Assembly: GCA_965219535.1 (NCBI GenBank)
Contig: CBDCNV010000001.1
Location: forward strand, 540,001-572,000
DNA from: Opitutales bacterium
GTDB lineage: Bacteria; Verrucomicrobiota; Verrucomicrobiia; Opitutales; PNEW01
DNA: 32,000 nt
Direction of reading: 5' to 3'
A program made the translations under genes and the position numbers. Positions within the stretch are counted from its first letter, which is position 1; each line of letters begins with the position of its first letter. The notes beneath the pieces were generated by a model that did no database searches, was not told the origin of the DNA, and was given only the letters and a program-made list of their open reading frames with translations. This document shows, piece after piece, positions 10,303 through 28,671 of this stretch.

Positions 10303-10333
10303 ACGGCGATTGGTTAGGGTGATTATTGCATCA

Positions 10334-11092
10334 CTAGCCAGGCTGACGAAGCCGAAACACAATGAAATTACACATCCGTAGCTCATCCTTGAAACCGGGA
10401 TATTGATCAAGCATCTCAGAACTTGGCTGTGGCTCTTGCATAGCCTCCAAATGAAAACCTGATTTAATAAAAGTATCAACATACGAACTCAATGTGCGAT
10501 GATACCAAAACAATTTGTCCGATGAATCTAGTGGATATTCCTGTTCATAACGGCCCTCGCAAAAATATCTGTCCACCCGCCAATGCTGTTTCCAACCTTG
10601 TGAATTTCGTTCCCAACCACTCTGAGGTGATATGAAGCAGGGATGCGAAATCGAAACGATATATAGGCCATCAGGTTTGATCAATCGGAAGGCTTCTTCT
10701 ATGGCAGCTTGATAGTTCGGTAGATCCTGAAGAACCATGTTAGATATGATTAGATCGAAGTGGTCTGCTTCTAAAAATGGCAGTGATTCGCAATTGCCAT
10801 GATGATAGGTGATAGCCAAATCCGGCGATGTGCGCTCATGTGCAATACGTAACATGGCCGTGGAAAAATCTACACCTGTTACGACTGCCCCTTGTTTGGC
10901 CAAGAGCCGACTGAGATAGCCATCACCACATCCGGCATCTAATACCGTTCTATCGGCTACATCGCCGATAAGACCAAACAGCGTCGGATTAAGCAACACG
11001 ATACGGTGTTGATCTCCTTCAGCGCCGAAGTCAGCCATGAGATTTTGAGCATGCTTATCCCATTGACCGATGGCTTTTTCAGCTTCAGACAT
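10334..11092 (-). CDS. Class I SAM-dependent methyltransferase
   Basis: Motif I VLDAGCGDGYLSRLLA, followed by VTGVDFS. 252 aa. Confidence 0.85.
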   Translation of the reverse strand: MSEAEKAIGQWDKHAQNLMADFGAEGDQHRIVLLNPTLFGLIGDVADRTVLDAGCGDGYLSRLLAKQGAVVTGVDFSTAMLRIAHERTSPDLAITYHHGNCESLPFLEADHFDLIISNMVLQDLPNYQAAIEEAFRLIKPDGLYIVSISHPCFISPQSGWERNSQGWKQHWRVDRYFCEGRYEQEYPLDSSDKLFWYHRTLSSYVDTFIKSGFHLEAMQEPQPSSEMLDQYPGFKDELRMCNFIVFRLRQPG

Positions 11093-11119
11093 GTCTTATA
11101 TCCTTTGAACGGAGTTTCG

Positions 11120-11206
11120 CCCTAACGTTCAAGTTGACCGGCGGCGCGAAAAGCGTCGCCTTCAGTATCGACGATGATCGCCGTCCGGTCCAACGCTTTG
11201 TTATAC
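11120..11206 (-). other. Integron attC-like recombination site (attC-1)
   Basis: Read on the minus strand: GTATAAC ... GTTAGGG. The arms GTTCAAGTTGACCGGCGGCG and CGCCG[T]CCGGTC[C]AAC pair, leaving two bulged bases on the plus strand. It begins 13 nt after the upstream stop and ends 27 nt before the next start. Confidence 0.7.
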
Positions 11207-11219
11207 CGCGATTCATGCG

Positions 11220-12101
11220 CTACGAGTCTCGGGATTCCAGCTCTTGACGATACCGTTGTGTTGTCCAAATGTCAGTATCCCAAAAGTCTTTGACCACTGG
11301 ATTGTATTCGGCATCACGATCAATTGCCCAGTGATAATGTTTGATTGGGCGCACACTATCGTCATTTCCGATACGAACACAACGGCCGATTATGGTCCAA
11401 ATGTCACAAGCATTCCAAAATTGATTAGCGTTTTCGAGAACGGGTTCCGGGAGCGATTCAATGAAGAGTTCATTGAATGTTGCTATGAATCGCGCGGATC
11501 GCGTTTGGACGACATCGTCGACGGCCCATATATATTCCGGCTCTTCGGGAATCTCCGCACAGCCAAGGTCATCCATTGCGTAAAGCACGACAGATTCACG
11601 CAGCGCAGATAAGACAACCGAATCGCGCGAAAGTGCAGCCAATGCCACCAGAGAAAAATCGTCGGAATCCAGCGCAAATTGACAGGCCGAGTTTGTGAGA
11701 TTCTCGATGTTCCATTCAGGAAATGTCTTCTGCAGGGCAACGGACAATGAATCTTCGCCGACCGTAAGGAGATAATCATCAACAAACGGCGGGCCAAAGA
11801 TAGGTGATTCAGTAACCTGCTTGAGGCGAGTGAAACCATCGACAGAGCTCAATTCGGATTCGCGATGTTTGGGAACTCGTTGAAGCGCGCGAACTAGACG
11901 GAAGTATTCAGTGAGAAGTTCGTCTTCTGCGTAGTACCCTTCAATTGGTACGTCCGCAGGCGCAACCGACAATGCGCTGGCGGTTTCTTTGGCGCAACGC
12001 AAGAGTTCATCGCGCTCGTGGCACTTCATGGCCTCGCGATAGAGGTCATCAAGACCGATCAGAAACACGCGGTTGTCTACGACTCGGCGTTCTGTATTCA
12101 T
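11220..12101 (-). CDS. Hypothetical protein (cassette-encoded)
   Basis: 293-aa ORF bounded by attC-2 (upstream) and attC-1 (downstream). I recognise no motif. Confidence 0.65.
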   Translation of the reverse strand: MNTERRVVDNRVFLIGLDDLYREAMKCHERDELLRCAKETASALSVAPADVPIEGYYAEDELLTEYFRLVRALQRVPKHRESELSSVDGFTRLKQVTESPIFGPPFVDDYLLTVGEDSLSVALQKTFPEWNIENLTNSACQFALDSDDFSLVALAALSRDSVVLSALRESVVLYAMDDLGCAEIPEEPEYIWAVDDVVQTRSARFIATFNELFIESLPEPVLENANQFWNACDIWTIIGRCVRIGNDDSVRPIKHYHWAIDRDAEYNPVVKDFWDTDIWTTQRYRQELESRDS

Positions 12102-12120
12102 GGCGGCAATTGAGTTAGCG

Positions 12121-12177
12121 GTATAACGTTTGAGCTAAGCGGCGCGTTTACGCGTCCGCTTCAGCGACTTGTTAGAA
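12121..12177 (-). other. Integron attC-like recombination site (attC-2)
   Basis: Plus strand: GTATAAC GTTTGAGCTAAGCGGCGCG TTTA CGCG[T]CCGCTT[C]AGCGACTT GTTAGAA. On the minus strand the TAA stop of ORF 12172-12597 lies inside the TTCTAAC box. Confidence 0.75.
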
Positions 12178-12597
12178 AGTTTCCTTTTTTAGTAAGTCTC
12201 TTCCGCCGTGACTGAGTAGCTTCTTCTTATATTCAATCGATTGCATCTGAGGACATTCCAATACTGCCTTGATAAATATCTCTGGTGGTAGGTAATTATG
12301 TACTGCGACATAATGAACGATTAGCTCCGGGGCGGCATAAACATTGCCGTCATAGGGAATGAATAGATTCGCGGTGCCTTTCGCTCCATCGAATTGACAT
12401 AGTTCACATTCATGCGCTCCACCAGACACGAATGTCTGGAATGGTTTTGAAGCAAGGTTCTTCAACTTAGAATAGAATTCTCCAGAAACCTTGCCTTTGG
12501 GAAATTCGAATTCCCAAGATAACCACCCTACTGCAACGAGCTTCTCGCTTCGCACTGGAAAATAGTCACAGATTTCTAAGTCTTTAATTCGTGTCAT
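12172..12597 (-). CDS. Hypothetical protein with HxCxxC ... YAAPxLIxHYxxxHxYxPP motif (conserved family of unknown function)
   Basis: 141 aa. GAHECELCQ ... VYAAPELIVHYVAVHNYLPPEIFIKAV resembles a widespread uncharacterised family that I recall only in outline. Confidence 0.65.
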   Translation of the reverse strand: MTRIKDLEICDYFPVRSEKLVAVGWLSWEFEFPKGKVSGEFYSKLKNLASKPFQTFVSGGAHECELCQFDGAKGTANLFIPYDGNVYAAPELIVHYVAVHNYLPPEIFIKAVLECPQMQSIEYKKKLLSHGGRDLLKKETF

Positions 12598-12606
12598 TAT
12601 ATTTCT

Positions 12607-12748
12607 AACAAGTGATTCTAAAGTTCTGTAATTTCGTGTGTGAGGATAATGCTGTCAAGGTTGGTAACTGATAAATACACAATTTTCTAACTTGTGTTCC
12701 TTACTCCAAACGTGATATAGGTATTTCTGCTTTTGTGATTCCTTATCA
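12607..12748 (-). repeat. 142-bp upstream 'leader' repeat, copy 1
   Basis: Homologous to 28530-28671, with conserved ends and a divergent central ~40 nt. On the minus strand the sequence just downstream of the conserved part reads CACTTGTTAGAAATATA-ATG, a GTTRRRY-like box just before the start codon. Confidence 0.6.
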
Positions 12749-12782
12749 TCACTTGCCGGCAATCGAAACAGTTAATTAAGAT

Positions 12783-12950
12783 CTAACTATATTTCTGAAT
12801 CCAACTGTAAACGGTATTGTAATTTAATTTTAACTTCCTAGCTATTGCCGCAATATTCAATCCCCATTCATACAGATCTAAAACTTTTTGCGAATACTCT
12901 TGTTTAATCCGTTTTTTGTATCCGGGGCAAAGTTTCCTCGGACGACCACC
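12783..12950 (-). pseudogene. Relic of a transposase-type helix-turn-helix N-terminus
   Basis: The minus-strand frame reads PTGGRPRKLCPGYKKRIKQEYSQKVLDLYEWGLNIAAIARKLKLNYNTVYSWIQKYS*. This is typical of IS630/IS3-type HTH regions. It has no start codon and is cut off by element B. Confidence 0.35.
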
Positions 12951-12953
12951 TGT

Positions 12954-13030
12954 GGGAAGAAAAAGGGGTCAAACGTAGAATTTAAATGTAATCGTCTGAT
13001 GAACTAATTACTGACCCCTTCTGGCTTTTC
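12954..13030. mobile_element. Family-1 element, internally deleted copy B (77 bp)
   Basis: The first ~60 nt of the family-1 left end are joined directly to the last ~20 nt of the right end, at the repeated TGACCC motif. Confidence 0.6.
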
Positions 13031-13127
13031 TTATATACCATAAGCGATAAAACGCTGTGGTTACTCGCTGTCGCTGTTCAGTGGTAAAATTGATTCTGTA
13101 TCCATGACTCCTTCCTCTACGATACTC

Positions 13128-13226
13128 CCAGAACATTAGCCGCTTTTACGATAGTTGCTTGTTGCCTTTCACACTGCAAAAACCGAGTATCGCTAATAAA
13201 CCTGATTGGCTAATCTAATGTTGGAT
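13128..13226 (+). other. Long attC-like junction element (S-type, copy S5), plus-strand orientation
   Basis: CCAGAAC-ATTAGCC ... GGCTAATCTAAT-GTTGGAT. The 3' half is homologous to the minus-strand reading of 23968-24010. GTTGGAT lies 19 nt before ATG 13246. Confidence 0.4.
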
Positions 13227-13245
13227 AAGCCGAGAAAGGCAAGGC

Positions 13246-14844
13246 ATGATGGAGCAACCGTTTCGACTTATATGGGAGGCTGAATGGAACGACATCGCGT
13301 GCGTGGATTACCCGCTGACGCCGGAGCAATGGCTGGGCGAGTGCATACGCCCGCTGGAGGGGACGCAGGTGGACTGCCTGCTCTACAACCTGTGCTCGTC
13401 GGACGCATACTGCTGCGACCTGGAAAGCGGCGAGATCCTGGGCGATGCGTTTGATCAATTCGAGGATGCCTGGGTTTGGCGCTATCGAGAGAACACTAAG
13501 AAGCTGATCGAGGCGAACGCGAACCCGCCGGTGCTTGCGTGTGAGTACGGGCACCGCATGGGATTGAAGCTGATTCCGATCGTTCGCATGAATGATGCAC
13601 ACGACCAAGTTTACAAGTACGAGGTCAGCCGGTTCAAGATGGCCAACCTGCATCTGCTTTTGGGTTACACCGGACCGGATTGGCAGCCACCTTGGGGCAC
13701 ATGGTTCCGAGCGCACCCCCATCCCGAGAGCATGGACTCCACTAATTGGGGGATGTTTGATTTTGCGCACAAAGAGGTCCGCGACCACAAAATGGCCATC
13801 ATCAAGGAGTTCATCACCCGATGGGACAACGACGGCGTCGCGCTTGATTTCGACCGTGATCCTCGCTACTTCAAAGAGTTCGGCAAGGCGGAAAACGCTG
13901 CGCTTATCACGGACATGGTACGGCAGACGCGCGAGATTCTGGACCGCGTGAGCAGCGAACGTGGTCGGCCCATGTACCTGCATGTGCGTGTCGTGGCAGA
14001 TATCGACACGTGCTGGCAACGAGGAATGGACGTGCGAACGTGGGTAACTGAGGGGTTGGTCGACGCCGTTGCGCCTGGCGCCGGATACATGTTATTCGAT
14101 TTGGACCTCGGTCCGTGGTTGGAACTGGTCGAAGGGCATGACTGCTGGATTTTCCCCTGCGCGAACCACTGGAGAAGGACGGAAGTGACCCGCGCCTGGG
14201 CCAAGTTAATGTATCATCGGGGAGCGCATGGTCTGCAACTGTTCAACTACGGGCACTTGCTCTACGGACACGGAAAAGATACGCCACCGCAATCCGAGCG
14301 AACAGGGACGGTCTGGTACGACGATCTGCACCCGGATTATTATCGTGTGCTGCGCGAGATCCACGATCCGGGCGCAATTGCCTTTCTCAACTGCGATTAC
14401 GATCTCGATTCACATCCGCGCGCGCCAAACCAGGGCGCTGAATCGGGACAGAACCACAGGATCTACCGGGGTATCGACGCGATCGTGCTCCCTGTGGAGC
14501 TGTCGGTTGGGTCACACGTCATCCCATTCGGGATTGCCGATGATCTGGAAGCGGCACGGCAACGGGTGCTGTCGCCGAGAGTCACCTTGCGATTACAGGT
14601 ACACAACTTCACGCAGCCGGATGAGTATAAGGTCTCAGTTAATGGAAGGTTATTGCCGGTAGATACGCGGAGCACCCGGGCGCAGTTTATCATGGACAAT
14701 TTTACTCGCATAACTTATCCCATACCGCCCGATGTCTTGAGGTTCGGCCAGAATGAATTGAAGATCGACATAGAACGCCTCAATCCGGTGATTTGCGTGA
14801 CTCCGCGACTGGATCATGTCGAGATTCTCGTGCAATATGCCTGA
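13246..14844 (+). CDS. Putative TIM-barrel glycoside-hydrolase-like protein
   Basis: 532 aa, GC-rich. FDFAHKEVRDHKMAIIKEFITRWDNDGVALDFDRDPRYF resembles the EVR...YD.DG..LD..R.P segment of GH-like (GHL10-type) families. The functional call is tentative. Confidence 0.55.
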   Translation: MMEQPFRLIWEAEWNDIACVDYPLTPEQWLGECIRPLEGTQVDCLLYNLCSSDAYCCDLESGEILGDAFDQFEDAWVWRYRENTKKLIEANANPPVLACEYGHRMGLKLIPIVRMNDAHDQVYKYEVSRFKMANLHLLLGYTGPDWQPPWGTWFRAHPHPESMDSTNWGMFDFAHKEVRDHKMAIIKEFITRWDNDGVALDFDRDPRYFKEFGKAENAALITDMVRQTREILDRVSSERGRPMYLHVRVVADIDTCWQRGMDVRTWVTEGLVDAVAPGAGYMLFDLDLGPWLELVEGHDCWIFPCANHWRRTEVTRAWAKLMYHRGAHGLQLFNYGHLLYGHGKDTPPQSERTGTVWYDDLHPDYYRVLREIHDPGAIAFLNCDYDLDSHPRAPNQGAESGQNHRIYRGIDAIVLPVELSVGSHVIPFGIADDLEAARQRVLSPRVTLRLQVHNFTQPDEYKVSVNGRLLPVDTRSTRAQFIMDNFTRITYPIPPDVLRFGQNELKIDIERLNPVICVTPRLDHVEILVQYA

Positions 14845-14862
14845 GCGCTTAGCATTTGGGAA

Positions 14863-15129
14863 GGGAAGAAAAAGGGGTCAAACGTAGAATTTAAAATGTA
14901 ATCGTCTGATGAACTAATTACTGACCCTTTAGGAGTAACAGATAGGCAGGCGTTCTGAGATCTCTGGTTAACTTTCTATTGTCCTTCCGCGTAATAGTTG
15001 ACCAATCTCAACCATCGATTCAACATTTCACCTTCAATTCTTTGCTTTCATCATAGCTTATTATACGGATTGCTTCAATTGACACTCATTAGATATTTAA
15101 ATTCTACGTTTGACCCCTTCTGGCTTTTC
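14863..15129. mobile_element. MITE-like element, family 1, copy C
   Basis: Same ends and interior as copies A and D, with a few substitutions and a 1-nt indel. It starts 18 nt after the stop of the upstream gene. Confidence 0.7.
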
Positions 15130-15217
15130 AGCGACCTCTGCGTCTCCGCGGTTAAATTTTCTTTTTTAAATACATTATTTTTTTGTGTTTATTCGTGTCT
15201 ATTGGTGATTAAATTCA

Positions 15218-16267
15218 ATGCTGAAGATTAGTGATGTTATGAAAGGAAATTGGCCGGTCGGGAAATCACCTGTGGAGGTGGGGCGTAGGATAGCGAGTTA
15301 CATTGTCAGTCGGGAGTTGAGGTATGTGTATGCGGCGACTTGTGCCTACTATGGAGCGCTTATATTTTCCGATGCCACCCATGACACGGATCTGCGCAAT
15401 CGTGTCATCGCTAATTATGAACCTTTCCTCATGGGTGACAAGAGCCCGCGCACGGGGCACGTGGACAACAACCTGTTTGGCATTGTGCCTTTTGAGATCT
15501 ATCGCCAGACGAAGGAAAAAAAATACCTGGCGATTGCGAAGTTGCTGGCCAACGACGAATGGGAGAACCCGCGACCCGACGGTTTAACCAAGTATACGCG
15601 TTTTACCGCGGATGATCCCTACATGGTCGGTTCATTGCAGGCCCAGGCTTACAAGGCTACGGGTGACATCGATTATGCAGACCGTGGCGCGAAGTTTATA
15701 CTGGCTTATGCGGAGAAGCTTCAGCGACCGGATGGTCTTTTTATCTATGACGAGAACAGACCGATTGCCTGGGGTAGAGGTAACGGCTGGTGCATTGGCG
15801 GCATGACGGAAATGCTGCTCGCTTTTCCCGAGGACCATGCCCAGCGAGAAGCGCTCATGGAAGTCTATCGAAAACAGATTGACGGTCTGATAAAACACCA
15901 GGACGAAACGGGAATGTGGCACCAGGTGATCGACAACCCCCATCTATTTCTCGAGTCATCGGGCACCGGAATAATTACCTATGCCATAGCAACTGGTGTT
16001 GAGCAAGGATGGCTGCCCGAAAAGACTTACCGGGATGTAGCCGAGCGTGCCTGGCTGGCGCTCACCGACTATGTTGACGAACAAGGCCAGGTGCGGAATA
16101 TCAGTTCAGGACATGTAGCCCTGATAAGAGAGTCTATGGAATTTTATGCCGAGCATGGCGAATTCCCGAAAGATGATTATCCCTCTATGAATGAAGTCGG
16201 TGATTTTCATGGTCAGGCAGTCGTGCTCTGGGCCGCAGCGGGGATGGAGAGAATCAGTAAACAGTGA
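15218..16267 (+). CDS. GH105/GH88-family unsaturated glycuronyl (rhamnogalacturonyl/glucuronyl) hydrolase
   Basis: Motifs WGRGNGW, GMWHQVID and ESSGTGIITYA, as in YteR/UGL-type enzymes. 349 aa. Confidence 0.8.
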   Translation: MLKISDVMKGNWPVGKSPVEVGRRIASYIVSRELRYVYAATCAYYGALIFSDATHDTDLRNRVIANYEPFLMGDKSPRTGHVDNNLFGIVPFEIYRQTKEKKYLAIAKLLANDEWENPRPDGLTKYTRFTADDPYMVGSLQAQAYKATGDIDYADRGAKFILAYAEKLQRPDGLFIYDENRPIAWGRGNGWCIGGMTEMLLAFPEDHAQREALMEVYRKQIDGLIKHQDETGMWHQVIDNPHLFLESSGTGIITYAIATGVEQGWLPEKTYRDVAERAWLALTDYVDEQGQVRNISSGHVALIRESMEFYAEHGEFPKDDYPSMNEVGDFHGQAVVLWAAAGMERISKQ

Positions 16268-16294
16268 ACAGTAAGTGGGCACTTGAGCGGGTGG

Positions 16295-16498
16295 AGTCGA
16301 AGGTCGAAGGTCTAAGGTCAAAAGGGGGGAGAAGAAAAGGGTTCAGGTTTCGGGTGTCGGATTTCGGAAAAAAATACTTATTATCGTTAGGAACAATCGT
16401 ACCCAGGGCAATACCCGACATTCTCCAAATCGGAAATCAGCAATTATTCTAACCCTGAACCTTCATAACCTAAAACCTAACACTTAACATCTAAAACT
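16295..16498. repeat. Palindromic element J (GGGTTCAGG variant) flanked by 7-bp tandem arrays
   Basis: 4 x RGTCKAA at 16295-16322. Inverted arms AAAAGGGTTCAGGTTTCGGGTGTCGGATTTCGG / CCGACATTCTCCAAATCGGAAATC...CCCTGAACCTT. About 5 x TAA(A/C)A(C/T)(C/T) heptamers at 16464-16498. Confidence 0.55.
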
Positions 16499-16508
16499 GA
16501 TCGATAGA

Positions 16509-18725
16509 TCACTCTATCGTTATCTCGTCTACTTCGACCGTGATGACATCGCCGTCTTCGTTAGCGAAGGTGGCATTAATACTCTGCGTAGGCTGAGGGG
16601 TGTTGTCAGACTTGAAGTTGTTCTGGGTGATCAAGGTCTCAAACCCCGTTGCGGGCGACCCGCTCTCCGCCACTACGATGGATGCTCCGTTCGTCTGCGC
16701 GAGGTCACCTCCGGTGATGCGCAACCCGGGGTTGCCGGCGGGCACGGAGAAGGACCCTTCACCAAAGAGGAGGTGGGGCACTGCATCGCCGTCGGCATCG
16801 ATATCACCTACGGTTAAGCGCACGGCAATCGGGACCCCGCGCGCATCGACGCCAACCTTGCCGGTGTTGCCACTGAAGACGGTGTTCGATAGTTGCATTC
16901 CTCCCATTCCCGTGGAGTTGATCACTTCCACCAAGGTCACGTCGGCCTGTGCGTCATAGACCTGTCCCTCGGGGAACAACGCCTGGTTCACCGCATTGAT
17001 TGATCCTACCGTAAAGATACTGAAGAAAGTACTGGAGTCGGCTCCATCAATGACCACGCTCGGTTTGCCCGTCACGTACTCGACTGACTGGTTGTAGCGT
17101 GGGGGGACGGCCGGAGGCAGGAAGGTGGCCGGGTCGAGGGTTACGGTAAAGGTGCCCGTGCCGGAGAATTCCACCTGCACGATGTCCTCGGTTTCATCCA
17201 TAAAGGAGACGCGTGTGATCTGATTCGGTCTGGCCTGTAGTTGGATGGACTCTCCGGTTAGGAGTATTTGATCAAAGACGTTACCGTTGGGATGCTGAAT
17301 GTTTTCACCGGCAATATCGCCTGAGCCGTCGAGGACCAAGGGCACGGAGGGGGCTGCGACGGTGATAACCGCAGTATCACTGTTAGTACTACCACCAGCG
17401 TTTGTTATCTGTACCCAGAAGTTGCTACTTGCGGTGAGGGCACTGGTTGTGAAGCTACTGCCAGTGGCCCCGGCGATGGGACTCGCGGTGTCACCGCTAT
17501 TGCCGGTAAACCATTGGAATGTAAGATCGTCACCACTGGCTTCAACGGACAAGCTGGTCGATGCACTGGACTGCACCTCCTGGCTCGCTGGTTGGGTGGT
17601 GATAGAGGGAGCATCCGCGGGTGGGGGACCCTCGGAGCCCGTTCCCGGGGCGCCGATGGGAGTAAAACCGAAATCATCGAAGACGGTTCTGCTTCTCGCA
17701 GTATTTACATTGGGGTTGTCCGAAACAATAATTCTGTCAATGCCGCCTGGAGCTCCCAACTCCACCGCATTGATCGTAGTTTGACGGGGTTTAAGTAAAG
17801 CACCAAGACCCCCAGCACTTTCCAAGTCCGAAAAGGTAGCAAGAAGGTTATCATTAGTATCGTAAACTTCGATTGATCCGTCGGGATCAGTATCGCCAGA
17901 CAAAATAATGGCTGCAGCAAAAACATCGATCTCGAATGCCGGGGTTTCAAAAGTGACCGTGAAGCTTTCTCCGTTAAAAATCCCATAGGATACTTGTCCC
18001 GAACGCGTTGGATTTTCTGAAGCACCAGCTAGTATCGAGCCCCCATCAAAAGTAGCACTATTGGGTGATGCCCCAACAATAAGGGGTTCAATTATTCCTG
18101 CACCCACACTGAATTCCTCAAATGTAGTGAATACGGTGTTATTGGACGGTCTTCTCGTTATCGTGAATCCCAGATCGTCAAGGGAGAATTTTCCTGAAAC
18201 ATTTTTTATTTTTAATTCTTTAATGCCGTCGAGAAAGTCAAAATCGGACGAGTCGAGGAACATATCACTGTCTGAAACGAAGATTTGAAGTGGTGGATTG
18301 GCACCGGGACTGATATTGGTAGGGAGACCATCGACAATACCATTATCCGCTAGAGTTGATGGAAATATTTGGCCTTCAAAAGGGAAATTTCCTCTGGGCT
18401 CGATCCTGCCGGCTCCCGTATTTTCGGCCGCATAAAATTGGATTTCATCAATACCTCTTTCCGATACAATTACCCCCTCCTGACCAGGCCCGAGGGTTAT
18501 CGCTTTTGTTCCGGAGTGTAAAAGTGCTGGATCTTCCAGGGTTTCCACCGTGAATCCGACTATCTTTACCCTGTTGGGTTCTTCCCCAATGAAAAATTCA
18601 CCTTCCCCGCTGATGTCCTCGAAATCGGTGAACACCTCGAGGTCTTGAGGAAGGGCCGACAGATGCACCGGTAAATAGAGTAAAAGAATCAGAAGCGGAA
18701 TTATTTTTATAGGTTTTCTTTTCAT
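16509..18725 (-). CDS. Large secreted surface protein with Ig-like domain (adhesin-like, function unknown)
   Basis: 738 aa with a signal peptide (KIIPLLILLLYLPVHLSA). It has an Ig-like module (ITTQPASQEV...LTFQWFTGNSG...AVITV) and repeated FxDFE-type N-terminal modules. Confidence 0.7.
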   Translation of the reverse strand: MKRKPIKIIPLLILLLYLPVHLSALPQDLEVFTDFEDISGEGEFFIGEEPNRVKIVGFTVETLEDPALLHSGTKAITLGPGQEGVIVSERGIDEIQFYAAENTGAGRIEPRGNFPFEGQIFPSTLADNGIVDGLPTNISPGANPPLQIFVSDSDMFLDSSDFDFLDGIKELKIKNVSGKFSLDDLGFTITRRPSNNTVFTTFEEFSVGAGIIEPLIVGASPNSATFDGGSILAGASENPTRSGQVSYGIFNGESFTVTFETPAFEIDVFAAAIILSGDTDPDGSIEVYDTNDNLLATFSDLESAGGLGALLKPRQTTINAVELGAPGGIDRIIVSDNPNVNTARSRTVFDDFGFTPIGAPGTGSEGPPPADAPSITTQPASQEVQSSASTSLSVEASGDDLTFQWFTGNSGDTASPIAGATGSSFTTSALTASSNFWVQITNAGGSTNSDTAVITVAAPSVPLVLDGSGDIAGENIQHPNGNVFDQILLTGESIQLQARPNQITRVSFMDETEDIVQVEFSGTGTFTVTLDPATFLPPAVPPRYNQSVEYVTGKPSVVIDGADSSTFFSIFTVGSINAVNQALFPEGQVYDAQADVTLVEVINSTGMGGMQLSNTVFSGNTGKVGVDARGVPIAVRLTVGDIDADGDAVPHLLFGEGSFSVPAGNPGLRITGGDLAQTNGASIVVAESGSPATGFETLITQNNFKSDNTPQPTQSINATFANEDGDVITVEVDEITIE

Positions 18726-20525: not shown

Positions 20526-20527
20526 CG

Positions 20528-21619: not shown

Positions 21620-21634
21620 CTGAACATTCCTTTC

Positions 21635-21691
21635 GTCTAACAACCAAGGACAGGTGCGGCTTCAGCCGTTACCTGCTCCGCCTTGTTCTAA
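21635..21691 (-). other. Integron attC-like recombination site (attC-6)
   Basis: Plus strand: GTCTAAC AACCAAGGACAGGTGCGGC TTCA GCCG[T]TACCTG[C]TCCGCCTT GTTCTAA. It abuts the VOC stop codon and ends 15 nt before the BNR ATG. Confidence 0.7.
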
Positions 21692-22081: not shown

Positions 22082-22233
22082 CGTTAACCTTTCTATGTAG
22101 CCATGAATCCGTCTACAATATCCTCGATGTCAGTTGTGTATGATATTCCTTCAGCTCTGTGCGAAGTGTCTCTCGATATTGCAGGTATCTTATTTTGTCG
22201 GTCTCCAGCACATTGTTAGATTCCGACCCCTCT

Positions 22234-22653
22234 TCACTCACCAATGGGATACCCCATGATCCAAACAATGAAAATAACAAGAATTTGAACAAAGAGTAGG
22301 GGAATATACCAAGCGAAAACAGAAATTAAATTGACCCACCATTTTTGCTTTGAAGATATTTGAATGAATTTTTCTAAATAAGTTCCAATCCCCAAAACCA
22401 AAAATAGGCCAACCAGAAAAACAATTGCAAATAAAAAAATCCCAGGTTTAGGAAACCAATTTTGTAAGGCTAGGATCAGTGGATATGGCCATAAATAAGC
22501 TGTCATCATCAAAAGATCGGCTGGTTCACCTAAAATGAGCTTGGTCGCTCGACCAATGAAAAAAAGAGAAGAGAAAACCAAATACAGAGCGGCTATTTTC
22601 GTGGCGAGTATATGCCGTTTGTAATAAGAGCGTGTGAAGAATGATATTTTCAT
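22234..22653 (-). CDS. Small integral membrane protein, unknown function
   Basis: About 4 hydrophobic segments. ATG 22653 lies 11 nt after the attC-3 GTTAGAT box. The ORF-track start at 22701 would translate through the attC hairpin. Confidence 0.6.
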   Translation of the reverse strand: MKISFFTRSYYKRHILATKIAALYLVFSSLFFIGRATKLILGEPADLLMMTAYLWPYPLILALQNWFPKPGIFLFAIVFLVGLFLVLGIGTYLEKFIQISSKQKWWVNLISVFAWYIPLLFVQILVIFIVWIMGYPIGE

Positions 22654-22664
22654 ATTGCTAAGGA

Positions 22665-22719
22665 ATCTAACGATTGAAATCAGTGGTGCTTTAGCGTTCA
22701 CTGGATTGATCTGTTAGAA
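22665..22719 (-). other. Integron attC-like recombination site (attC-3)
   Basis: Plus strand: ATCTAAC GATTGAAATCAGTGGTGC TTTA GCG[T]TCACTG[G]ATTGATCT GTTAGAA. Identical over ~55 nt to 23905-23959. Confidence 0.7.
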
Positions 22720-22731
22720 AATATTTATTTT

Positions 22732-22786
22732 CCCTTACATTAGATTAGGCAACAGGTTTTTAGCGTGGCGTGCTGCCGTTGCTTAG
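22732..22786 (-). repeat. S-type junction repeat, copy S1 (degenerate)
   Basis: ACATTAGATTAGGCAACAGGTTTTTAGCG is homologous to 23973-24000 and 24573-24600. It lies between a stop codon and attC-3. Confidence 0.4.
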
Positions 22787-23055
22787 CTATTCAGGATCAC
22801 TGATATGCTCTGTGAGTTTTATCCATTCCTTGTTTACAGCACCAGACACCGAAGAAATTTGCCAAAACCATACTTCTCCTGTTGTTACATTAACTCTATA
22901 TAAAAATTGACCTGCATCTGTAAATTTGGGAATATTTCAAACTGATCTTTATCTGGTATTTCAATCTGATCTTTAGGTAGTATGATCTGATAACAACCAG
23001 CGACACCGAGAACTATTCCGAGCAATAGAATCCAAATATAATTTTGATTTTTCAT
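22787..23055 (-). pseudogene. Small lipoprotein-like ORF, apparently frameshifted
   Basis: ATG 23055 opens MKNQNYIWILLLGIVLGVAGC... (lipobox-like), stopping at 22885. A second frame continues ...FTDAGQFLYRVNVTTGEVWFWQISSVSGAVNKEWIKLTEHISDPE* to 22787. It is below the ORF-track size cut-off. Confidence 0.3.
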
Positions 23056-23279
23056 ATGCACACCTTGTTAGATCAGATGAGTGAAAGCGATCTCATATTG
23101 AAGCGTAATTGCCTCTAGGATTTGTTTTGAATTTTGGAAAAAAGTTACCGTCGTTTAGTAAAAGCGGATTCAGCTAACGATGAAGCTCAGCGGTCGCCGC
23201 GAAGCGGATGGTTCGGCAGTTCATTCATTCCGCCCTAATCATTCCTAAATATGCCATCAAAGATGGTACCCATGAAGGT

Positions 23280-23891
23280 TCAGAGCCCTTTTGTCATTCG
23301 ATAGAACTTCAATCCCGGTATAGCCAATCGCTTCGGCCACTGCGACTCGACGTTCATCCCGCGGCGCTCGTAGAATCGGCGAGCCCCCTCATTCTTAGCT
23401 GAAACGTCGAGGGATAGTCGAGTCGATCCGATCGCGCGAGCCCGCTCTTCAAAGGAGTCCATCAAGACGGAGCCGACGCCATCGCCGCGAAGTTCCTTAT
23501 CAACAGCGATGGCCCCGAGGTAGAAATCGCCATCGGCGATTGAATCGATAATCCGCATGAGTGGAGCAAACAGTATTAGCACGATCCTCATTCGTAGATT
23601 ACGCCTTCCGGCAGCCCGCTTCAGGGGTTGGAGCGAGGAACGGCGATGCTGCTCCGCGGTGTACCCCGAGACCATTTCCACTATGACGTTGTCACGTTCT
23701 GCAAAAGTCACATTTTGGTAGGAGAGGTCGTGATCGGGCTGGGTGAACGCAGTGGCGATTATGTATCCGGCGCGGCGACCGAGCATAAAACGAAAGAACC
23801 CCTCGGCTGCTTCGTCAAGGTAGCGGGCACATGCCAGACCTTCATCGAACGTGGGGTTGGCAGCCCTTAGGACTATCGAATGCCGATCCAT
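23280..23891 (-). CDS. GNAT family N-acetyltransferase
   Basis: Acetyl-CoA motif A IAVDKELRGDGVGSVLM, followed by NEGARRFYERRGM. 203 aa. Confidence 0.85.
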   Translation of the reverse strand: MDRHSIVLRAANPTFDEGLACARYLDEAAEGFFRFMLGRRAGYIIATAFTQPDHDLSYQNVTFAERDNVIVEMVSGYTAEQHRRSSLQPLKRAAGRRNLRMRIVLILFAPLMRIIDSIADGDFYLGAIAVDKELRGDGVGSVLMDSFEERARAIGSTRLSLDVSAKNEGARRFYERRGMNVESQWPKRLAIPGLKFYRMTKGL

Positions 23892-23904
23892 ATGGTCCTT
23901 CTAC

Positions 23905-23959
23905 GCCGAACGATTGAAATCAGTGGTGCTTTAGCGTTCACTGGATTGATCTGTTAGAA
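23905..23959 (-). other. Integron attC-like recombination site (attC-4)
   Basis: Same hairpin as attC-3. On the minus strand it reads TTCTAAC ... GTTCGGC and ends 13 nt before the GNAT ATG. Confidence 0.7.
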
Positions 23960-23967
23960 AATATTTT

Positions 23968-24050
23968 TTCTAACATTAGATTAGCCAACAGGCTTTTAGC
24001 GAGGCGTAATTACTCGAGGATTCGTTTTGATTGCGAGCTGATTTACACCG
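23968..24050 (-). repeat. S-type junction repeat, copy S2 (possible long attC variant)
   Basis: It fills the gap from the cupin stop (24052) to attC-4. The minus-strand reading ends GGCTAATCTAATGTTAGAA. It is homologous to S1, S3 and S5. Confidence 0.45.
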
Positions 24051-24051
24051 C

Positions 24052-24519
24052 CTAAATCTCCAGCGGTGGTCCCACTATCTCCATGTTGTACTTCTCGGCT
24101 AAGGCATTGGCTTTGGCAACGTAAGCCTCTGTGTCCGTAACATCCAGATCGACTGCTTCATCAAAGAACTGCTCAAATCCTGGTGGAGAAAAGATGACGA
24201 GGAACTTGGCAGGCTCCTGCCCGACCCGAGAAAAGGCGTGAACCGTTCCTCTGGGGACAAGGACGAAGGAACCAGCTGTCGCTCTAATAGTGCGTTCACC
24301 CAACAGGATATTAATCTCTCCCTCCAAGACATAGAAGGCTTCATCCTCGGTTTTGTGTATGTGTTGTGGCGGTCCGTCCCCGACAAGCTCAACTTCCAAC
24401 AGTGAATACCCGTCATCAGTGTCCGCACCAACCACCTTATGCGTTACCTTGTGACCTGGCACTGGAACTATCTTGCCTTCTCCTGGGCCAAGTAAAATGT
24501 TTTCATCGTTATTAGACAT
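24052..24519 (-). CDS. Cupin domain protein
   Basis: 155 aa. PPQHIHKTEDEAFYVLEG ... GTVHAF are cupin motifs. Confidence 0.8.
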   Translation of the reverse strand: MSNNDENILLGPGEGKIVPVPGHKVTHKVVGADTDDGYSLLEVELVGDGPPQHIHKTEDEAFYVLEGEINILLGERTIRATAGSFVLVPRGTVHAFSRVGQEPAKFLVIFSPPGFEQFFDEAVDLDVTDTEAYVAKANALAEKYNMEIVGPPLEI

Positions 24520-24570
24520 GACTTGCTATCCTTTCCTCATGGACCTCCGTTCGTTGTTTTCCGTGCTTCA

Positions 24571-24650
24571 TCACATTAGATAGCCAACAGGTTCTTAACA
24601 AGGCGTAATCGCCAATAAGATTCATTTAGATCGCGAGCTGATTGCTGTCA
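24571..24650 (-). repeat. S-type junction repeat, copy S3
   Basis: ACATTAGATAGCCAACAGGTTCTTAACAAGGCGTAAT...GATCGCGAGCTGATTGC is collinear with S2. Confidence 0.45.
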
Positions 24651-24712
24651 TCAACCCTCCATTGACCATACCATCCCCCACATCAATAGCAGTAAAGGAT
24701 ATAACATTATTG

Positions 24713-24922
24713 TCATTTACCACTATCCTTCTTGAAGCCACTAATTACCCATATTGATCCCCATATTATCAGCGGTGGAAGTAATCCAAAGGTCGCGAAC
24801 GCTCCGATATCTTCAGGAACAAACCTTAAGAACCAGAGTATCCAAAGGACCGTTAAGATCAACGCTCTTTTCTGCCACGAAAGCTGCATAACTATTATTA
24901 AAATACAGATGGAATTGCTCAT
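24713..24922 (-). CDS. Small two-TM membrane protein, unknown function
   Basis: ATG at 24922 (MSNSICILIIV...). The ORF-track TTG start at 24940 overlaps a degenerate S-type repeat (GGCAACAGGC...). Confidence 0.45.
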   Translation of the reverse strand: MSNSICILIIVMQLSWQKRALILTVLWILWFLRFVPEDIGAFATFGLLPPLIIWGSIWVISGFKKDSGK

Positions 24923-25134
24923 TGAAAGACTCAATGGCAACAGGCAGTAAGAAGAATAAAAGGGATTTCCTCAGTGAAGCCGTGAGAGTGTTTTGATGGG
25001 CTGGGGTACGTTTGGATACTTCTTGGTTAATTGCCTTGTGTTAAAATAGCCAGCGTTACTATCTTGCAAAAGACCTGCTGCAGTTAATGCATCTAATCAG
25101 TATACAGGGTTCTAAAAAAATGGAGAGGACAGAT

Positions 25135-25641
25135 ATGAATTTAAATTACATGGGTATAATCATCGGCGGGTTTCTACCCGCTATTATATTTGGTATCGGC
25201 GGAATATTCTTAAAAGCCAGCGCTCGGCAAGGGATAAGCCTGAACCATTTAATCTTATTTGCCGGGGCAGGGGCGATTTTCCTGGCGTTCCTGTTATTGG
25301 TTCTAATCAAAGAAAAATCGATAAGCGCTGGGTCCGCGACGTTGGCATTTTGTGTCGGACTGTCATGGGCAAGCGCCACAGCTCTAATGTCAATAGCGAT
25401 GGTTAAGTTTGAAACTCCAATTTCAATAATTGGTCCCTTAACTTCTACAGCCAGTCTGATCACGGCCCTGCTGGCTATGTGGATATTTTCAGAATGGAAA
25501 GAAGTCCTTATCGCACGTCTTCTGATTGGCGCCACCCTCATTGTAATAGGAGTTATGCTGGTGTCTACGTCGTCTGAAGCGAACAGAATTCAACATTCGA
25601 TACCCCCTGGTAATCAACATGGGGATGAACACTTCAACTGA
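25135..25641 (+). CDS. Small DMT/EamA-like membrane transporter (single 5-TM domain)
   Basis: GGAGAGG lies 6 nt before ATG 25135. Five hydrophobic segments. Glycine-rich TM1 (GIIIGGFLPAIIFGIGGIF). Confidence 0.55.
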   Translation: MNLNYMGIIIGGFLPAIIFGIGGIFLKASARQGISLNHLILFAGAGAIFLAFLLLVLIKEKSISAGSATLAFCVGLSWASATALMSIAMVKFETPISIIGPLTSTASLITALLAMWIFSEWKEVLIARLLIGATLIVIGVMLVSTSSEANRIQHSIPPGNQHGDEHFN

Positions 25642-25705
25642 TGCTGTATAACTAAAAGAAAAAAAAGAGTCAAGTGCGGCTCTCAGCCTTTGTCTACGAA
25701 ATATC

Positions 25706-25840
25706 AAAAGGGGTCAGGCCGTGTATTTATAGATTTTCTATCTACCTTTATTAAAACAATAAGATCTACTTAAATAAACAATCCGTATGCCGTTTTCTGA
25801 TATATGGGCCTATCGTATTTAAGTAGTGTGCATCCCGAAT
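25706..25840. mobile_element. Family-3 element, partial copy H2 (left end plus core)
   Basis: CAAAAGGGGTCAGGCCGTGTATTTATAGATTTTC matches the left end of F. The core at 25741-25840 matches 2687-2787. No right inverted end was found. Confidence 0.5.
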
Positions 25841-25940
25841 ATGATATTGATTTGGTCCAGTCAGTAGCGGAACGCGAAATACATGTAAGTGAGAATGATT
25901 TTTGATCCTCACACGAATCGCTCTAACTCATTGTCTTTGC

Positions 25941-26001
25941 ACCTAACGCCTGCCATTCAACTGCAAAGCGTAGCTTTGTCTGCTGCAATGGCTTGTTAGG
26001 C
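25941..26001 (-). other. Integron attC-like recombination site (attC-9)
   Basis: Plus strand: ACCTAAC GCCTGCCATTCAACTGCAAAGC GTA GCTTTG[T]CTGCTG[C]AATGGCTT GTTAGGC. The minus-strand boxes GCCTAAC and GTTAGGT fit RYYYAAC/GTTRRRY exactly. It begins 15 nt after the VOC2 stop. Confidence 0.7.
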
Positions 26002-26016
26002 CGATGAACTTCCTCA

Positions 26017-26811
26017 TCACGGTACCAACGCCAGGCACGCACCCACAGGGTCCTGAACAACGTCAGATGCGTATGTCCCATCTGTTTCTTGTGTCGCTTT
26101 GATGATCTTACCCCCGCCCTCTTGCACACGACGAAGACTTTCAGGGAGATCGCCAACGGGGAGGTACATCAGCCAGACCGGCGGCAGGCCCAGGTTCGCG
26201 CCGCGTGCATGACAGACTCTCGCCGCCGGGTTCCCATCATCACCGAGCATGTTGTAGTCGATGTAGGCCTCATCCTCGTTCTCCATCTCGATGTTCTGCA
26301 CCGACCAGCCCACGACCTGTCGATAGAAGTCACGGGTTGTCAGGGAGTCAGAGACCGTCAGATTGAGCCAAGAAATGCAACCTACACGCTCCGCGGCGTC
26401 GCGGGATGCGCCGCCCTCATCCGGGGAAATGGACTCGGCTGAGACGACTGGCATGACCCCAAATGCCGCCCCATTGGGATCGAGCAGAGCAGCCCACTGA
26501 CTTTTTCCGCCGTCGTCTTTGGAATGCATAAGCTCATCCCCGCCCAGCCCCAGCGCACGAGCGACACTGGTTGCGACATCGGCGACCTGTATATGCGGCA
26601 TCCATTGCAGCGGTAGCTTTTCGTACTCCGCAATGCGCGCGCCCAGGCCGATGATCGGCATTCCTCGGTTGTTCATCAGGTCGTCCCGCCAAAGTGGATT
26701 CTCTCCCGTGGTCAACACACGTGAGTAGAAGCTCAGTTCGCGATCGTGTTCTGGGACGGCAATATCGGCGCTGAGGATCCCGCCGACGCCTGGGACAAAA
26801 GGGTTACTCAT
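26017..26811 (-). CDS. Two-domain VOC/glyoxalase-like family protein
   Basis: 264 aa. Two halves each end in a VOC-like ...LLDPNGAAFG / ...VQDPVGACLAL strand motif. Confidence 0.6.
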   Translation of the reverse strand: MSNPFVPGVGGILSADIAVPEHDRELSFYSRVLTTGENPLWRDDLMNNRGMPIIGLGARIAEYEKLPLQWMPHIQVADVATSVARALGLGGDELMHSKDDGGKSQWAALLDPNGAAFGVMPVVSAESISPDEGGASRDAAERVGCISWLNLTVSDSLTTRDFYRQVVGWSVQNIEMENEDEAYIDYNMLGDDGNPAARVCHARGANLGLPPVWLMYLPVGDLPESLRRVQEGGGKIIKATQETDGTYASDVVQDPVGACLALVP

Positions 26812-26968
26812 GGTTCACGTCCTTGTTGCAGCGCGTTGGTTGGCGCGCGGGTTTCTGCGGGCGTTATAATTAAATCGGCTGCCATTGGCTGCTACCCAGT
26901 CGGCCTATCGTCACCGTTCTCGCGCGGCTGTAAGCCGTCGCGAGCAACGGCTTGTTGGGAGTCTTCAG

Positions 26969-28513
26969 TTAATAGTCATCGAGAATTGAAGGGTCGACAT
27001 CGGGCATCGTGTCGAGTTTCCATATGTCGACCGGCACATCATTCAGTTGTTGCGTCCCGGGTGTGCTGCGGCCTTCGGAGACATAGGCCTCAAGCAAAGA
27101 GAGCAGCTCCTTGATCTTGTCTTGCTGCTCGGCCTCCAGATTGCGCATCTCACCGGGATCAGTCTGCATGTCATAGAGCTGGACAAGAGGCAATCCAGCC
27201 TTGGCGGCATCAGCGTCGTTGAGGGTCCACCCCCCTGATCCCGGACAAAGTACGAGTTTCCAGCGTCCGTCGCGGATCGCGAACTTACCTTCGATCGAAT
27301 GGTGTACCACCGTGGTCCGGCCCGCCGGCCCGCCGCGGAACACCGACATCATGCTGACGCTGTCCTCGCCGGCGTTGTCCGGCAATTCTTCACCAACGAT
27401 GGACGCACACGTCGCCATCAGGTCCGACAGGCATACAAGAGAGCTGCACTCGGATCCGGGCTCAATGATGCCGGGCCAGCGTGCCATGCAGGGGATGCGA
27501 TGCCCGCCGTCCCAAGCGTCGGATTTGTACCCACGATATGGGCCGCTGGGGAAGTGCCCCTGTGCTTCCATTTCCTTTGCACCAATGAAGTGTGCGCAAC
27601 CGTTATCGCTGGCAAAGATCACGAGCGTGTTGTCGGCCACGCCGTGCCTCTCAAGTGAATCGAGCATGCGACCGAATATGTCGTCGGTCTCGACGACCAG
27701 ATCGGCATAGAGATTGTTCAGTCCGCTCTTACCGATGAAGCGTTTGTTGACCGACAGCGGGGTATGCGGGGAGGTCATGGGGAGATAGAGGAAGAACGGT
27801 TCAGCCGCTTCTGCCCGTTTCTTGATATAGCATTCTGCCTCCTTCGCCCAAGTCGGCAGCAATTGCTCGAAATGCCAGTAAGGCATGGCCGGTCCTTGCA
27901 GGCTGGCCAAATTGTCGCCGAGCAGTCGTGCGGGCAAGAATTCAGAAGGAATGCCCACCGTGTAGTCGTTCTCAATGAAGCAATAGGGCGGCCAGTTCGG
28001 GACATCGACACCACAATAGTAGTCGAACCCGCGCGTGGTCGGCCCTCCCGTTGTGGGCCTCCGAAAGGCCTCCCGCCAGCGCAGCCGTTGCTGTTCGCTT
28101 GCTTCAAGATCGTGGGCGGGAGTACTGTCATACCCGTGCTCTGGCCGGAAGTCTTCATCAGCCTCGAGATCCCAGCCCTGTCCGAGATGCCATTTGCCGA
28201 TGCAGGCAGTATGGTAACCGTGCTGCTTAAGGAATCCGGGCACAGTTAAGCGGTCTGCTGCAATGAGCGGGTCGCCGTACACACCGACAATTCCCTGCTG
28301 CAACGGGGAACGCCAGTTATAGCGACCAGTCAGCACGCTGTAGCGCGACGGTGAACAGACGGCCGAGCTGGAGTGGGCATCCGTGAACTTCATGCCTTCG
28401 GAGGCCAGGCGATCGATATTCGGGGTCTTGATCTTTCCTTCCGGGTTCAGGCAAGACGCGTCACCGTAGCCCATGTCATCAACAAAAAAGTAGACGATGT
28501 TTGGTTTTGTCAT
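26969..28513 (-). CDS. Formylglycine-dependent (S1 family) arylsulfatase, no signal peptide
   Basis: CSPSRYSVLTGRY (CxPxR) motif. N-terminus IVYFFVDDMGYGD. GKWHLG. ATG 28513 has a GGAAAGGAA RBS, and the TTG at 28534 is probably an over-extension. Confidence 0.85.
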   Translation of the reverse strand: MTKPNIVYFFVDDMGYGDASCLNPEGKIKTPNIDRLASEGMKFTDAHSSSAVCSPSRYSVLTGRYNWRSPLQQGIVGVYGDPLIAADRLTVPGFLKQHGYHTACIGKWHLGQGWDLEADEDFRPEHGYDSTPAHDLEASEQQRLRWREAFRRPTTGGPTTRGFDYYCGVDVPNWPPYCFIENDYTVGIPSEFLPARLLGDNLASLQGPAMPYWHFEQLLPTWAKEAECYIKKRAEAAEPFFLYLPMTSPHTPLSVNKRFIGKSGLNNLYADLVVETDDIFGRMLDSLERHGVADNTLVIFASDNGCAHFIGAKEMEAQGHFPSGPYRGYKSDAWDGGHRIPCMARWPGIIEPGSECSSLVCLSDLMATCASIVGEELPDNAGEDSVSMMSVFRGGPAGRTTVVHHSIEGKFAIRDGRWKLVLCPGSGGWTLNDADAAKAGLPLVQLYDMQTDPGEMRNLEAEQQDKIKELLSLLEAYVSEGRSTPGTQQLNDVPVDIWKLDTMPDVDPSILDDY

Positions 28514-28529
28514 TTCCTTTCCTACACCC

Positions 28530-28671
28530 AACAAGTGGTTCTAAAGTTCTGTATATTTCCGCATGGGGATAAAATCGTAAAGTTTAATTACTGTTAAATA
28601 CACATTTTCCTAACTAGTGTTCCTTACTCCAAGCGTGATATAGGTATTTCAGCTTTGGTGATTCCTTATCA
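28530..28671 (-). repeat. 142-bp upstream 'leader' repeat, copy 2
   Basis: Homologous to 12607-12748. The minus-strand end reads CACTTGTTGGGTGTAGGAAAGGAA-ATG. GTTGGGT fits GTTRRRY. Confidence 0.6.

Follow-up and report, generated by a model that had tools for sequence, protein, structure and literature searches.

Layout of the two arrays

The stretch of DNA analysed here (the window) comprises 32,000 nt from the chromosome of an Opitutales bacterium (contig CBDCNV010000001.1, positions 540,001 to 572,000) and carries two groups of genes that are interspersed with imperfect palindromes. Very probably, these groups are two integron-type cassette arrays on the minus strand, which belong to the attC clusters that have no integrase (CALINs) and are headed by copies of an attI-like element termed D3 here. 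Coordinates are window positions, and the array features, attC sites and D3 heads are read on the minus strand.

An initial annotation of this DNA had proposed one array of 18 kb (10303-28531). This was not confirmed: two arrays are present, and the stretch 12750-20527 between them contains no attC site but genes that are not cassettes, together with transposon-like inverted-repeat elements. Array A (10303-12748) consists of three cassettes, which carry a DUF7919 gene, a gene for a 293-aa hypothetical protein and a methyltransferase gene. Array B (about 20528-28671) consists of about ten units in the order sulfatase, double VOC, a 2-kb interval, an open reading frame (ORF)-less mini-cassette, GNAT, a 58-aa ORF, a second copy of the mini-cassette's attC, membrane protein, VOC and BNR. 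The cassettes each comprise a mostly promoterless ORF and an attC site behind it, and their GC content ranges from 0.37 to 0.59, compared with 0.44-0.47 in the core flanks. The attC sites are numbered s1 to s7, and S1, S2 and S4 denote a different type of repeat. In the list, the slash in G/TT marks the crossover.

12607-12748, minus strand: D3a, head of array A; TTGACA at 12658-12653; homology stops at ...CACTTG/TT (GTT at 12609-12607)
12127-12606, minus strand: cassette A1; DUF7919 gene (12597-12172) and attC s2 (12177-12121)
11126-12126, minus strand: cassette A2; gene for the 293-aa hypothetical protein (12101-11220) and attC s1 (11206-11120, 87 nt)
10303-11125, minus strand: cassette A3; S-adenosylmethionine-dependent methyltransferase gene (11092-10334) and a truncated attC
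12749-20527: spacer between the arrays, without cassettes; helix-turn-helix remnant (12785-12952), GH156-like sialidase (13246-14844, plus strand), GH88 (15218-16267, plus strand), a gene for an Ig-like 738-aa protein and a gene for a 318-aa cupin protein
28530-28671, minus strand: D3b, head of array B; ends with ...CACTTG/TTGGGT, 12 nt ahead of the start codon (ATG, 28513) of the sulfatase gene
26909-28529, minus strand: cassette B1; sulfatase gene (28513-26969; Pfam) and attC s7 (26960-26903) with a degenerate R' box, GATAGGC
25947-26908, minus strand: cassette B2; double VOC/glyoxalase gene (26811-26017) and attC s6 (26001-25941)
23975-25946, minus strand: interval without a recognisable attC; inverted EamA-like membrane gene (25087-25641, plus strand), 75-aa ORF, cupin gene (24519-24052) and the repeats S1 and S2
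23905-23959, minus strand: attC s5, belonging to the ORF-less mini-cassette 23973-23911; the preceding box is GTTAGAA
23178-23910, minus strand: GNAT cassette; GNAT acetyltransferase gene (23891-23280) and a short, decayed attC-like site (23217-23172)
22665-23177, minus strand: 58-aa ORF cassette; ORF 23061-22885, degenerate S4 repeat (22788-22732) and attC s4 (22719-22665)
21635-22664, minus strand: gene for a 139-aa membrane protein (22653-22234), R'' remnant ATCTAAC (22221-22215), VOC gene (22081-21692) and attC s3 (21691-21635)
20528-21634, minus strand: final unit of array B; BNR/sialidase-like gene (21618-20528), which starts 16 nt past attC s3 and lacks its own attC

attC sites and cassette junctions

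The six palindromes on which the initial annotation was based (11120-11206, 12121-12177, 21635-21691, 22665-22719, 23905-23959 and 25941-26001) are all present on the minus strand, and each is bounded by the R'' and R' boxes that had been given for it. Their position relative to the genes was also described correctly: the stop codons at 11220, 21692 and 26017 lie 0-15 nt ahead of R'', the TAA of the ORF 12172-12597 falls within a TTCTAAC box, and five sites finish 12-27 nt before the next start codon (11092, 12101, 21618, 22653 and 23891). When folded as single-stranded DNA, the six palindromes take the attC shape. Five of them have a common layout, in which R'' (7 nt) is followed by 5 nt, 3 bp, one bulged base, 6 bp, a bulged A, a variable stem-loop, 6 bp, 3 bp, 6 nt and R' (7 nt). 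The same layout is found in the class 1 aadA1 attC (L004, 5999-6058), one of the aadA1-type controls taken from plasmids (L003 and L004). The extrahelical bases are confined to one arm, as in the imperfect palindrome R''(RYYYAAC)-spacer-L''...L'-spacer-R'(GTTRRRY) that characterises attC sites. A strict layout scan of the window with the aadA1 attC parameters returned five matches, all intergenic and all on the minus strand, whereas 100 shuffled sequences gave a mean of 0.28 and a maximum of two.

No Rfam family matched these sites, and the covariance-model test was run in reverse, i.e., models were built from Opitutales sites and asked to detect known class 1 attC sites. Model R1 contains four window sites only; model R2 combines six sites of the window with four from relatives, and its base pairing is restricted to the R and L boxes. 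R1 detected the aadA1 attC with 49 bits (E 2e-9), as well as its relative in L003 (E 7e-7), with no other match below E 10 in the two plasmid loci. R2 detected the class 1 attC sites with 53.8 and 47.2 bits (E 2e-12 and 1.5e-10), compared with 49.6-63.7 bits for the window sites. Both models also recovered sites that were absent from their seeds: R1 identified a new site, s7 (26903-26960), just past the stop codon of the sulfatase gene (21.5 bits, E 0.015; fold z-score -4.6), and R2 matched s1 (11124-11202) with 27.5 bits (E 5e-5). All R2 matches in the window at E<0.01 are on the minus strand. In total, seven sites in the window are supported by the models, all on one strand, and the spacer of about 7.8 kb between the arrays has no match by R1 or R2.

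The Opitutales sites resemble the class 1 aadA1 attC in the spacing of the boxes (7-5-3-bulge-6-A ... 6-3-6-7), in the consensus of R'' and R' and in length (55-61 nt), and the models cross-detect at 47-54 bits. They differ in the first bulged base, in most cases a top-strand G (a bottom-strand C) instead of C/G; the sequence homology is limited to the consensus, and the host belongs to another phylum.

In integrons, the cutting and joining of cassettes takes place between G and TT in the R' box, and the R'' box of each cassette is complementary to the TTRRRY sequence at its own 5' end. In nine cassettes with model-supported sites from the window and its relatives, this rule is obeyed by 33 of 36 variable bases, compared with a mean of 17 in a permutation test (P about 5e-6). 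Five additional cassettes, read off the sequence, have 6-7 matches out of seven, including the methyltransferase, GNAT, membrane-protein and ORF-less cassettes with complete matches. The following cassettes illustrate the rule:

DUF7919 cassette: 5' junction GTTAGAA, own R'' TTCTAAC, 7/7
293-aa gene cassette: 5' junction GTTATAC, own R'' GTATAAC, 7/7
Methyltransferase cassette: 5' junction GTTAGGG, own R'' CCCTAAC, 7/7
Sulfatase cassette: 5' junction GTTGGGT, own R'' TCCCAAC, 6/7
Double VOC cassette: 5' junction GATAGGC, own R'' GCCTAAC, 6/7 (variable bases 4/4)
GNAT cassette: 5' junction GTTCGGC, own R'' GCCGAAC, 7/7
ORF-less mini-cassette: 5' junction GTTAGAA, own R'' TTCTAAC, 7/7
Membrane-protein cassette: 5' junction GTTAGAT, own R'' ATCTAAC, 7/7

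This complementarity between R'' and the 5' box is the footprint of IntI recombination at G/TT, and it cannot be produced by repetitive extragenic palindromic (REP) elements, terminators or chance. In the related locus L009, one and the same ORF-less cassette occurs once behind D3 and once behind an attC, with the same G/TTGTAA junction, which may reflect cassette mobility.

The possibility that the hairpins are REP-like elements, terminators or the ends of miniature inverted-repeat transposable elements (MITEs), with no relation to integrons, draws on the fact that they are intergenic palindromes after stop codons in a region that is rich in other palindromic elements. It is effectively refuted by the use of a single strand, by the confinement of the sites to the arrays, by the fixed positions of the AAC/GTT boxes and the bulges, and by the class 1 cross-match and the junction rule described above; moreover, a terminator scan did not report the hairpins. 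R2 found no match at E<0.01 in 20 kb of core-gene flanks (L021, L001), and in these flanks the hairpins do not follow core genes in both orientations, an occurrence that the initial annotation had listed as speaking against attC sites. The proposed ORF-attC-ORF cassette organisation is therefore borne out by the detection of class 1 attC sites and the R''/R' rule, and the hairpins are genuine integron attC sites.

D3 heads and the search for an integrase

The two D3 copies in the window are 142 nt long and 82-83% identical, and their homology stops exactly at the GTT. The 22-nt end of D3 occurs as an exact copy at seven places in two Opitutales metagenome-assembled genomes (MAGs; OY829953.1 and CBDANS010000007.1) and a few JGI contigs, and exact matches were found nowhere else; a search in viral contigs found none. 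When variants are included, there are 13 copies from Opitutales and JGI contigs, all of which stop at the same CACTTG/TT. A perfect TTGACA is present in 11 of the 13 copies and is followed by GAATAT 17 nt later. The genes that come after D3 vary and include sulfatases, amidohydrolase, PhyH, GFA, isochorismatase and Hypoth_Ymh. Six distinct D3 copies, namely the two in the window and those in L007, L009, L010 and L012, are followed by a first attC whose R'' box matches, and additional co-oriented attC sites lie further downstream. D3 has no hairpin fold (z about +0.5), and on this ground we rejected the ideas that it is a long attC or a promoter cassette without an ORF. Direct repeats of the GTTA type are present in D3, as is an inverted AGAAC box that lies 13 nt ahead of the GTT.

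From the orientation of the cassettes, attI had been predicted to lie to the right, and an attI-like head is indeed found at the right end of each array. We infer that D3 behaves as an attI site with a cassette promoter and without intI. Like attI and the genomic attG positions (bioRxiv 10.1101/2022.09.11.507474), D3 is a non-hairpin and presumably double-stranded site to which cassettes are joined at G/TT, downstream of a promoter-like element. It differs from a classical attI, which is present in a single copy and abuts intI, in that several copies exist per genome and none of them adjoins an integrase gene in the loci read. It also differs from attG: attG sites are unrelated genomic GWT positions, whereas D3 is a conserved element of 55-142 nt.

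A further set of GTT boxes had been noted ahead of the starts at 12597, 18725, 22081 and 28513. Those ahead of 12597 and 28513 are the D3 ends; the box at 22081 is part of a non-folding stretch, and that at 18725 has neither attC-like nor D3-like surroundings.

Several small features accompany D3. In L009 (3780-5700), D3 copies occur in tandem, two full and one core-only. A short divergent ORF start (MMKK[LI]..VLQTAF) precedes each full D3 copy in L009 and the one in L012 (3290-3340); it is interrupted by a MITE-like element or by a stop codon, its shortness precludes an assignment, and it might be what is left of a lost platform gene. Directly upstream of D3a, a truncated helix-turn-helix ORF on the minus strand (12785-12952, ending in ...IAAIARKLKLNYNTVYSWIQKYS and a stop) is conserved with a copy upstream of D3 in L007/MAG OY829953.1 and resembles, by eye, an OrfA-type helix-turn-helix remnant of a transposase.

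The absence of a tyrosine recombinase, stated in the initial annotation for the window, was confirmed by Pfam and by searches with IntI1. Pfam found neither a tyrosine recombinase nor PF00589 in the 29 main window ORFs that were scanned, and phmmer and tblastn with IntI1 against the window, 8-10 kb on both sides and related loci (168 kb together) gave nothing at E<3; tblastn over the same 168 kb detected no intI pseudogene. The right flank (8.7 kb) encodes FG-GAP, MgtC, a nuclease and an IS3 transposase, and the left flank encodes TatC, PPDK, HflX and queuosine genes. The genes that diverge from the heads, where intI lies next to attI in an integron, encode a GH156-like sialidase and a PhyH dioxygenase. 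A 532-aa divergent ORF beside D3a was considered as a novel recombinase and rejected, as it is GH156 sialidase-like (PDB 6rzd, E 8e-16).

By the IntegronFinder definition (PMC4889954), a CALIN has at least two co-oriented attC sites within 4 kb and no intI within 4 kb. The sites 11120-11206 and 12121-12177 in array A and the five sites between 21635 and 26960 in array B fit this description. The two arrays are CALIN elements because there is no integrase in the window or in the 8-10 kb beyond. The initial annotation had left the choice between a CALIN and part of a very large chromosomal integron; the former holds, and the latter is disfavoured by flanks without further attC sites. Similarities to known CALINs (PMC4889954) extend to the small size of the arrays (two and five model-supported sites), the non-resistance cargo and the association with insertion sequence (IS)/MITE-like elements. 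Different from those CALINs, each Opitutales array keeps a conserved head that ends at the crossover and is multi-copy in the lineage, and large genes for glycan degradation, which encode a 521-aa sulfatase and a BNR protein, are among the cargo.

The arrays also share with sedentary chromosomal integrons, such as the Vibrio superintegron or the array in L024, their chromosomal location and co-oriented cassettes of mostly unknown or accessory function, and the 293-aa protein family is common to the window and L024. In contrast to these integrons, the Opitutales arrays have no adjacent intI and contain only three and about ten cassettes, and their attC sites are heterogeneous rather than near-identical, except for s4 and s5. 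The 293-aa family of cassette A2 has 887 matches with 56-76% identity in Planctomycetes, Cyanobacteria and Bacteroidota. One homolog lies behind a different attC in L024, an 8.26-Mb circular contig (sample ERZ25071330), where positions 1-12876 contain more than 20 co-oriented small ORFs without Pfam hits, spaced by RYYYAAC...GTTRRRY palindromes of about 90-130 nt. L024, which comes from an ENA assembly with an adjacent accession number, is probably a large sedentary chromosomal integron array of another organism with a different attC type.

CALINs have been attributed to loss of intI or to rearrangement (Cury et al., PMC4889954), and to off-target insertion at attG sites near promoters (bioRxiv 10.1101/2022.09.11.507474). 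The two arrays could accordingly be detached pieces of one complete chromosomal integron, whose intI and true attI were separated from them by IS/MITE-like rearrangement and lie elsewhere on the 379-kb metagenome contig that matches the window or on the chromosome. The IS3 transposase about 8 kb to the right, the divergent ORF remnants upstream of D3 in L009 and L012 and the concentration of MITE-like tips in the region (11 between 10046 and 28843, with 0.09 expected) are compatible with such a history, as is the listing of rearrangement among the routes to CALINs. We nevertheless consider this origin doubtful, given that the flanks have neither attC sites nor an intI pseudogene, that each array possesses its own complete head and that D3 heads without intI occur at at least seven places in the two reference MAGs.

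The off-target route leads to another explanation, in which D3 is not a dedicated attI but a repeated promoter element whose terminal GTT is a hotspot for attG-type insertion by an IntI acting in trans. Cassettes are known to insert at genomic GWT sites and to be expressed near resident promoters (bioRxiv 10.1101/2022.09.11.507474), and some D3 copies precede genes without attC. All 13 copies, however, break at the same nucleotide, and the conserved GTTA-type direct repeats together with the inverted xxAGAAC box 13 nt from the GTT resemble the organisation of attI, which makes this explanation unlikely.

The reading that we prefer is that of CALINs with attI-like D3 heads. Cassettes would be excised as circles and re-inserted by a tyrosine recombinase of the IntI type, which uses attC sites in their folded, single-stranded form, with D3 as the double-stranded, attI-like insertion site whose conserved sequence ends at the crossover G/TT. 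D3 would also supply the promoter that transcribes the first cassettes, and the integrase would act, or have acted, in trans from elsewhere in the genome.

Several observations weigh against this reading. No integrase was found for the lineage in the DNA examined, so that recombination activity is only predicted here. All contigs that cover the locus are at least 99.97% identical, and no presence/absence polymorphism is visible among them. The attC-like site of the GNAT cassette scored only 10 bits with R2 (E 4.3), and a segment shifted by 4 nt (23168-23213) folds weakly. The stretch 22082-22221 was rejected as a 140-nt attC, as it does not fold and the R'' box is its only survivor. The S-type repeats were rejected as a second attC class, with fold z-scores from -1.0 to +0.8 and no match by either model. 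The TTGACA-17-GAATAT pair of D3 went unreported in a scan for the sigma-70 consensus. In addition, attC sites are absent from the 2-4 kb downstream of four D3 copies (L005, two in L008, L011); this does not fit a classical attI, and neither do the multiple copies and the lack of a neighbouring integrase. In view of these four copies, D3 may in addition be a mobile promoter element of a general kind.

Array decay, neighbouring elements and implications

The arrays are decaying. The R' box of s7 has GAT instead of GTT, one attC is shortened, others are reduced to remnants, and MITE-like elements have spread through the entire region. In cassette A3, the attC remnant consists of R'' CCCTAAC (10319-10313), a 5-nt spacer and GCCGT and is then cut by a 265-nt MITE-like element. 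The decayed attC sites and the MITE-like invasion indicate that parts of the arrays are probably frozen.

The S-type repeats S1 (24575-24645), S2 (23968-24045, ending with GTTAGAA) and S4 (22732-22788) were found only in this window. They are about 55-75 nt long, have GTTAGAA-like ends and occupy positions where an attC would be expected. S4 has an R''-like AGCTAAG opposite a GTTAGCT junction. The cassette-owned part of s5 is identical to that of s4, and S2 plus s5 and S4 plus s4 form a duplicated module of about 100 nt.

The MITE-like elements of the region are as follows:

9815-10302: tail of array A, two abutting MITE-like elements
10038-10302: MITE1, tips GGGGTCAAACGTAGAATTTAAAT
9815-10036: MITE4, 14-bp terminal inverted repeat CTTGTCATTGCGAG
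10038-10302, 14864-15130 and 18837-19102: full copies of MITE-like elements with the tip AAAAGGGGTCA
12954-13040 and 28692-28842: partial or variant copies with this tip
20100-20252, 20455-20527 and 25697-25736: other elements with this tip

The tip AAAAGGGGTCA is common to several MITE-like families, and all 11 such tips in the window fall within the confined range given above. A truncated copy of the MITE4-type element at the tail of array B (20259-20387) is 89-97% identical to the full copy at the tail of array A. Several elements begin 2-30 nt past a stop codon, at the position expected for an attC, as does the element 20455-20527, which begins 2 nt past the stop codon of the BNR gene; in one case, an attC is cut by the element. 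In Opitutales MAGs, elements of a similar kind are found right beside D3 heads. IS1111-attC elements target attC sequences, and by analogy the MITE-like elements may target attC or D3 sequences.

Genes for glycan degradation are found in and between the arrays (13246-21618 and 26969-28513) and encode a GH156-like exosialidase, GH88, a BNR/sialidase-like protein and a sulfatase. Of these, the sulfatase gene has the flanks of a true cassette, and with 1.6 kb it is a large cargo of uncommon function.

Immediately to the left, array A adjoins a type IV pilus-like operon with genes for PilM, an Amuc_1100-family protein and a secretin (4159-9715), which marks the boundary of the core genome. The exact D3 matches in Opitutales MAGs and the adjoining Amuc_1100-family gene identify the host as an Opitutales bacterium (Verrucomicrobiota), which bears out the earlier assignment to this phylum. 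Contigs from three public samples match the window with an identity of at least 99.97%, among them the 379-kb ENA metagenome contig ERZ25072670 ctg255932; about 52 kb of this contig and 8-kb pieces of the reference MAGs were read. In one contig of sample ERZ25067264 (L019, 8883-11014), the secretin gene is broken at a position corresponding to about 9242 of the window and is followed by a 554-aa large serine recombinase (Resolvase and Zn_ribbon_recom), which is a strain-specific insertion of another mobile element beside array A.

The view that integrons are little documented in this phylum is weak, since genome surveys already report integrons and CALINs in Verrucomicrobia (PMC4889954; PMC8618304); in the literature, we found no report of integrons specific to Opitutales. 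Whereas CALINs as a kind of element are already known, the multi-copy D3 head is new here and is the one feature that could set the locus apart. The locus provides clean, well-resolved cassette arrays in environmental Verrucomicrobiota, in which the cargo is not antibiotic resistance but small enzymes, membrane proteins and a sulfatase, and it illustrates how arrays decay via degenerate attC sites and invasion by MITE-like elements.

As a tentative proposal, which we advance with considerable reservation, the lineage might possess a 'distributed integron', i.e., D3 modules that combine promoter and insertion site and are scattered in several copies over each chromosome, each of which heads a small array, none of which is linked to intI, and all of which are served in trans by one integrase that is either encoded elsewhere or acquired transiently. 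If this is true, a multi-platform layout would replace the canonical single intI-attI-Pc platform, with a cargo that includes polysaccharide-degradation genes, e.g., sulfatases. A D3 module that functions as a multi-copy attI and promoter served in trans would revise the view of integrons as systems with a single insertion platform and would explain, in concrete terms, where part of the many CALINs of unexplained origin come from.

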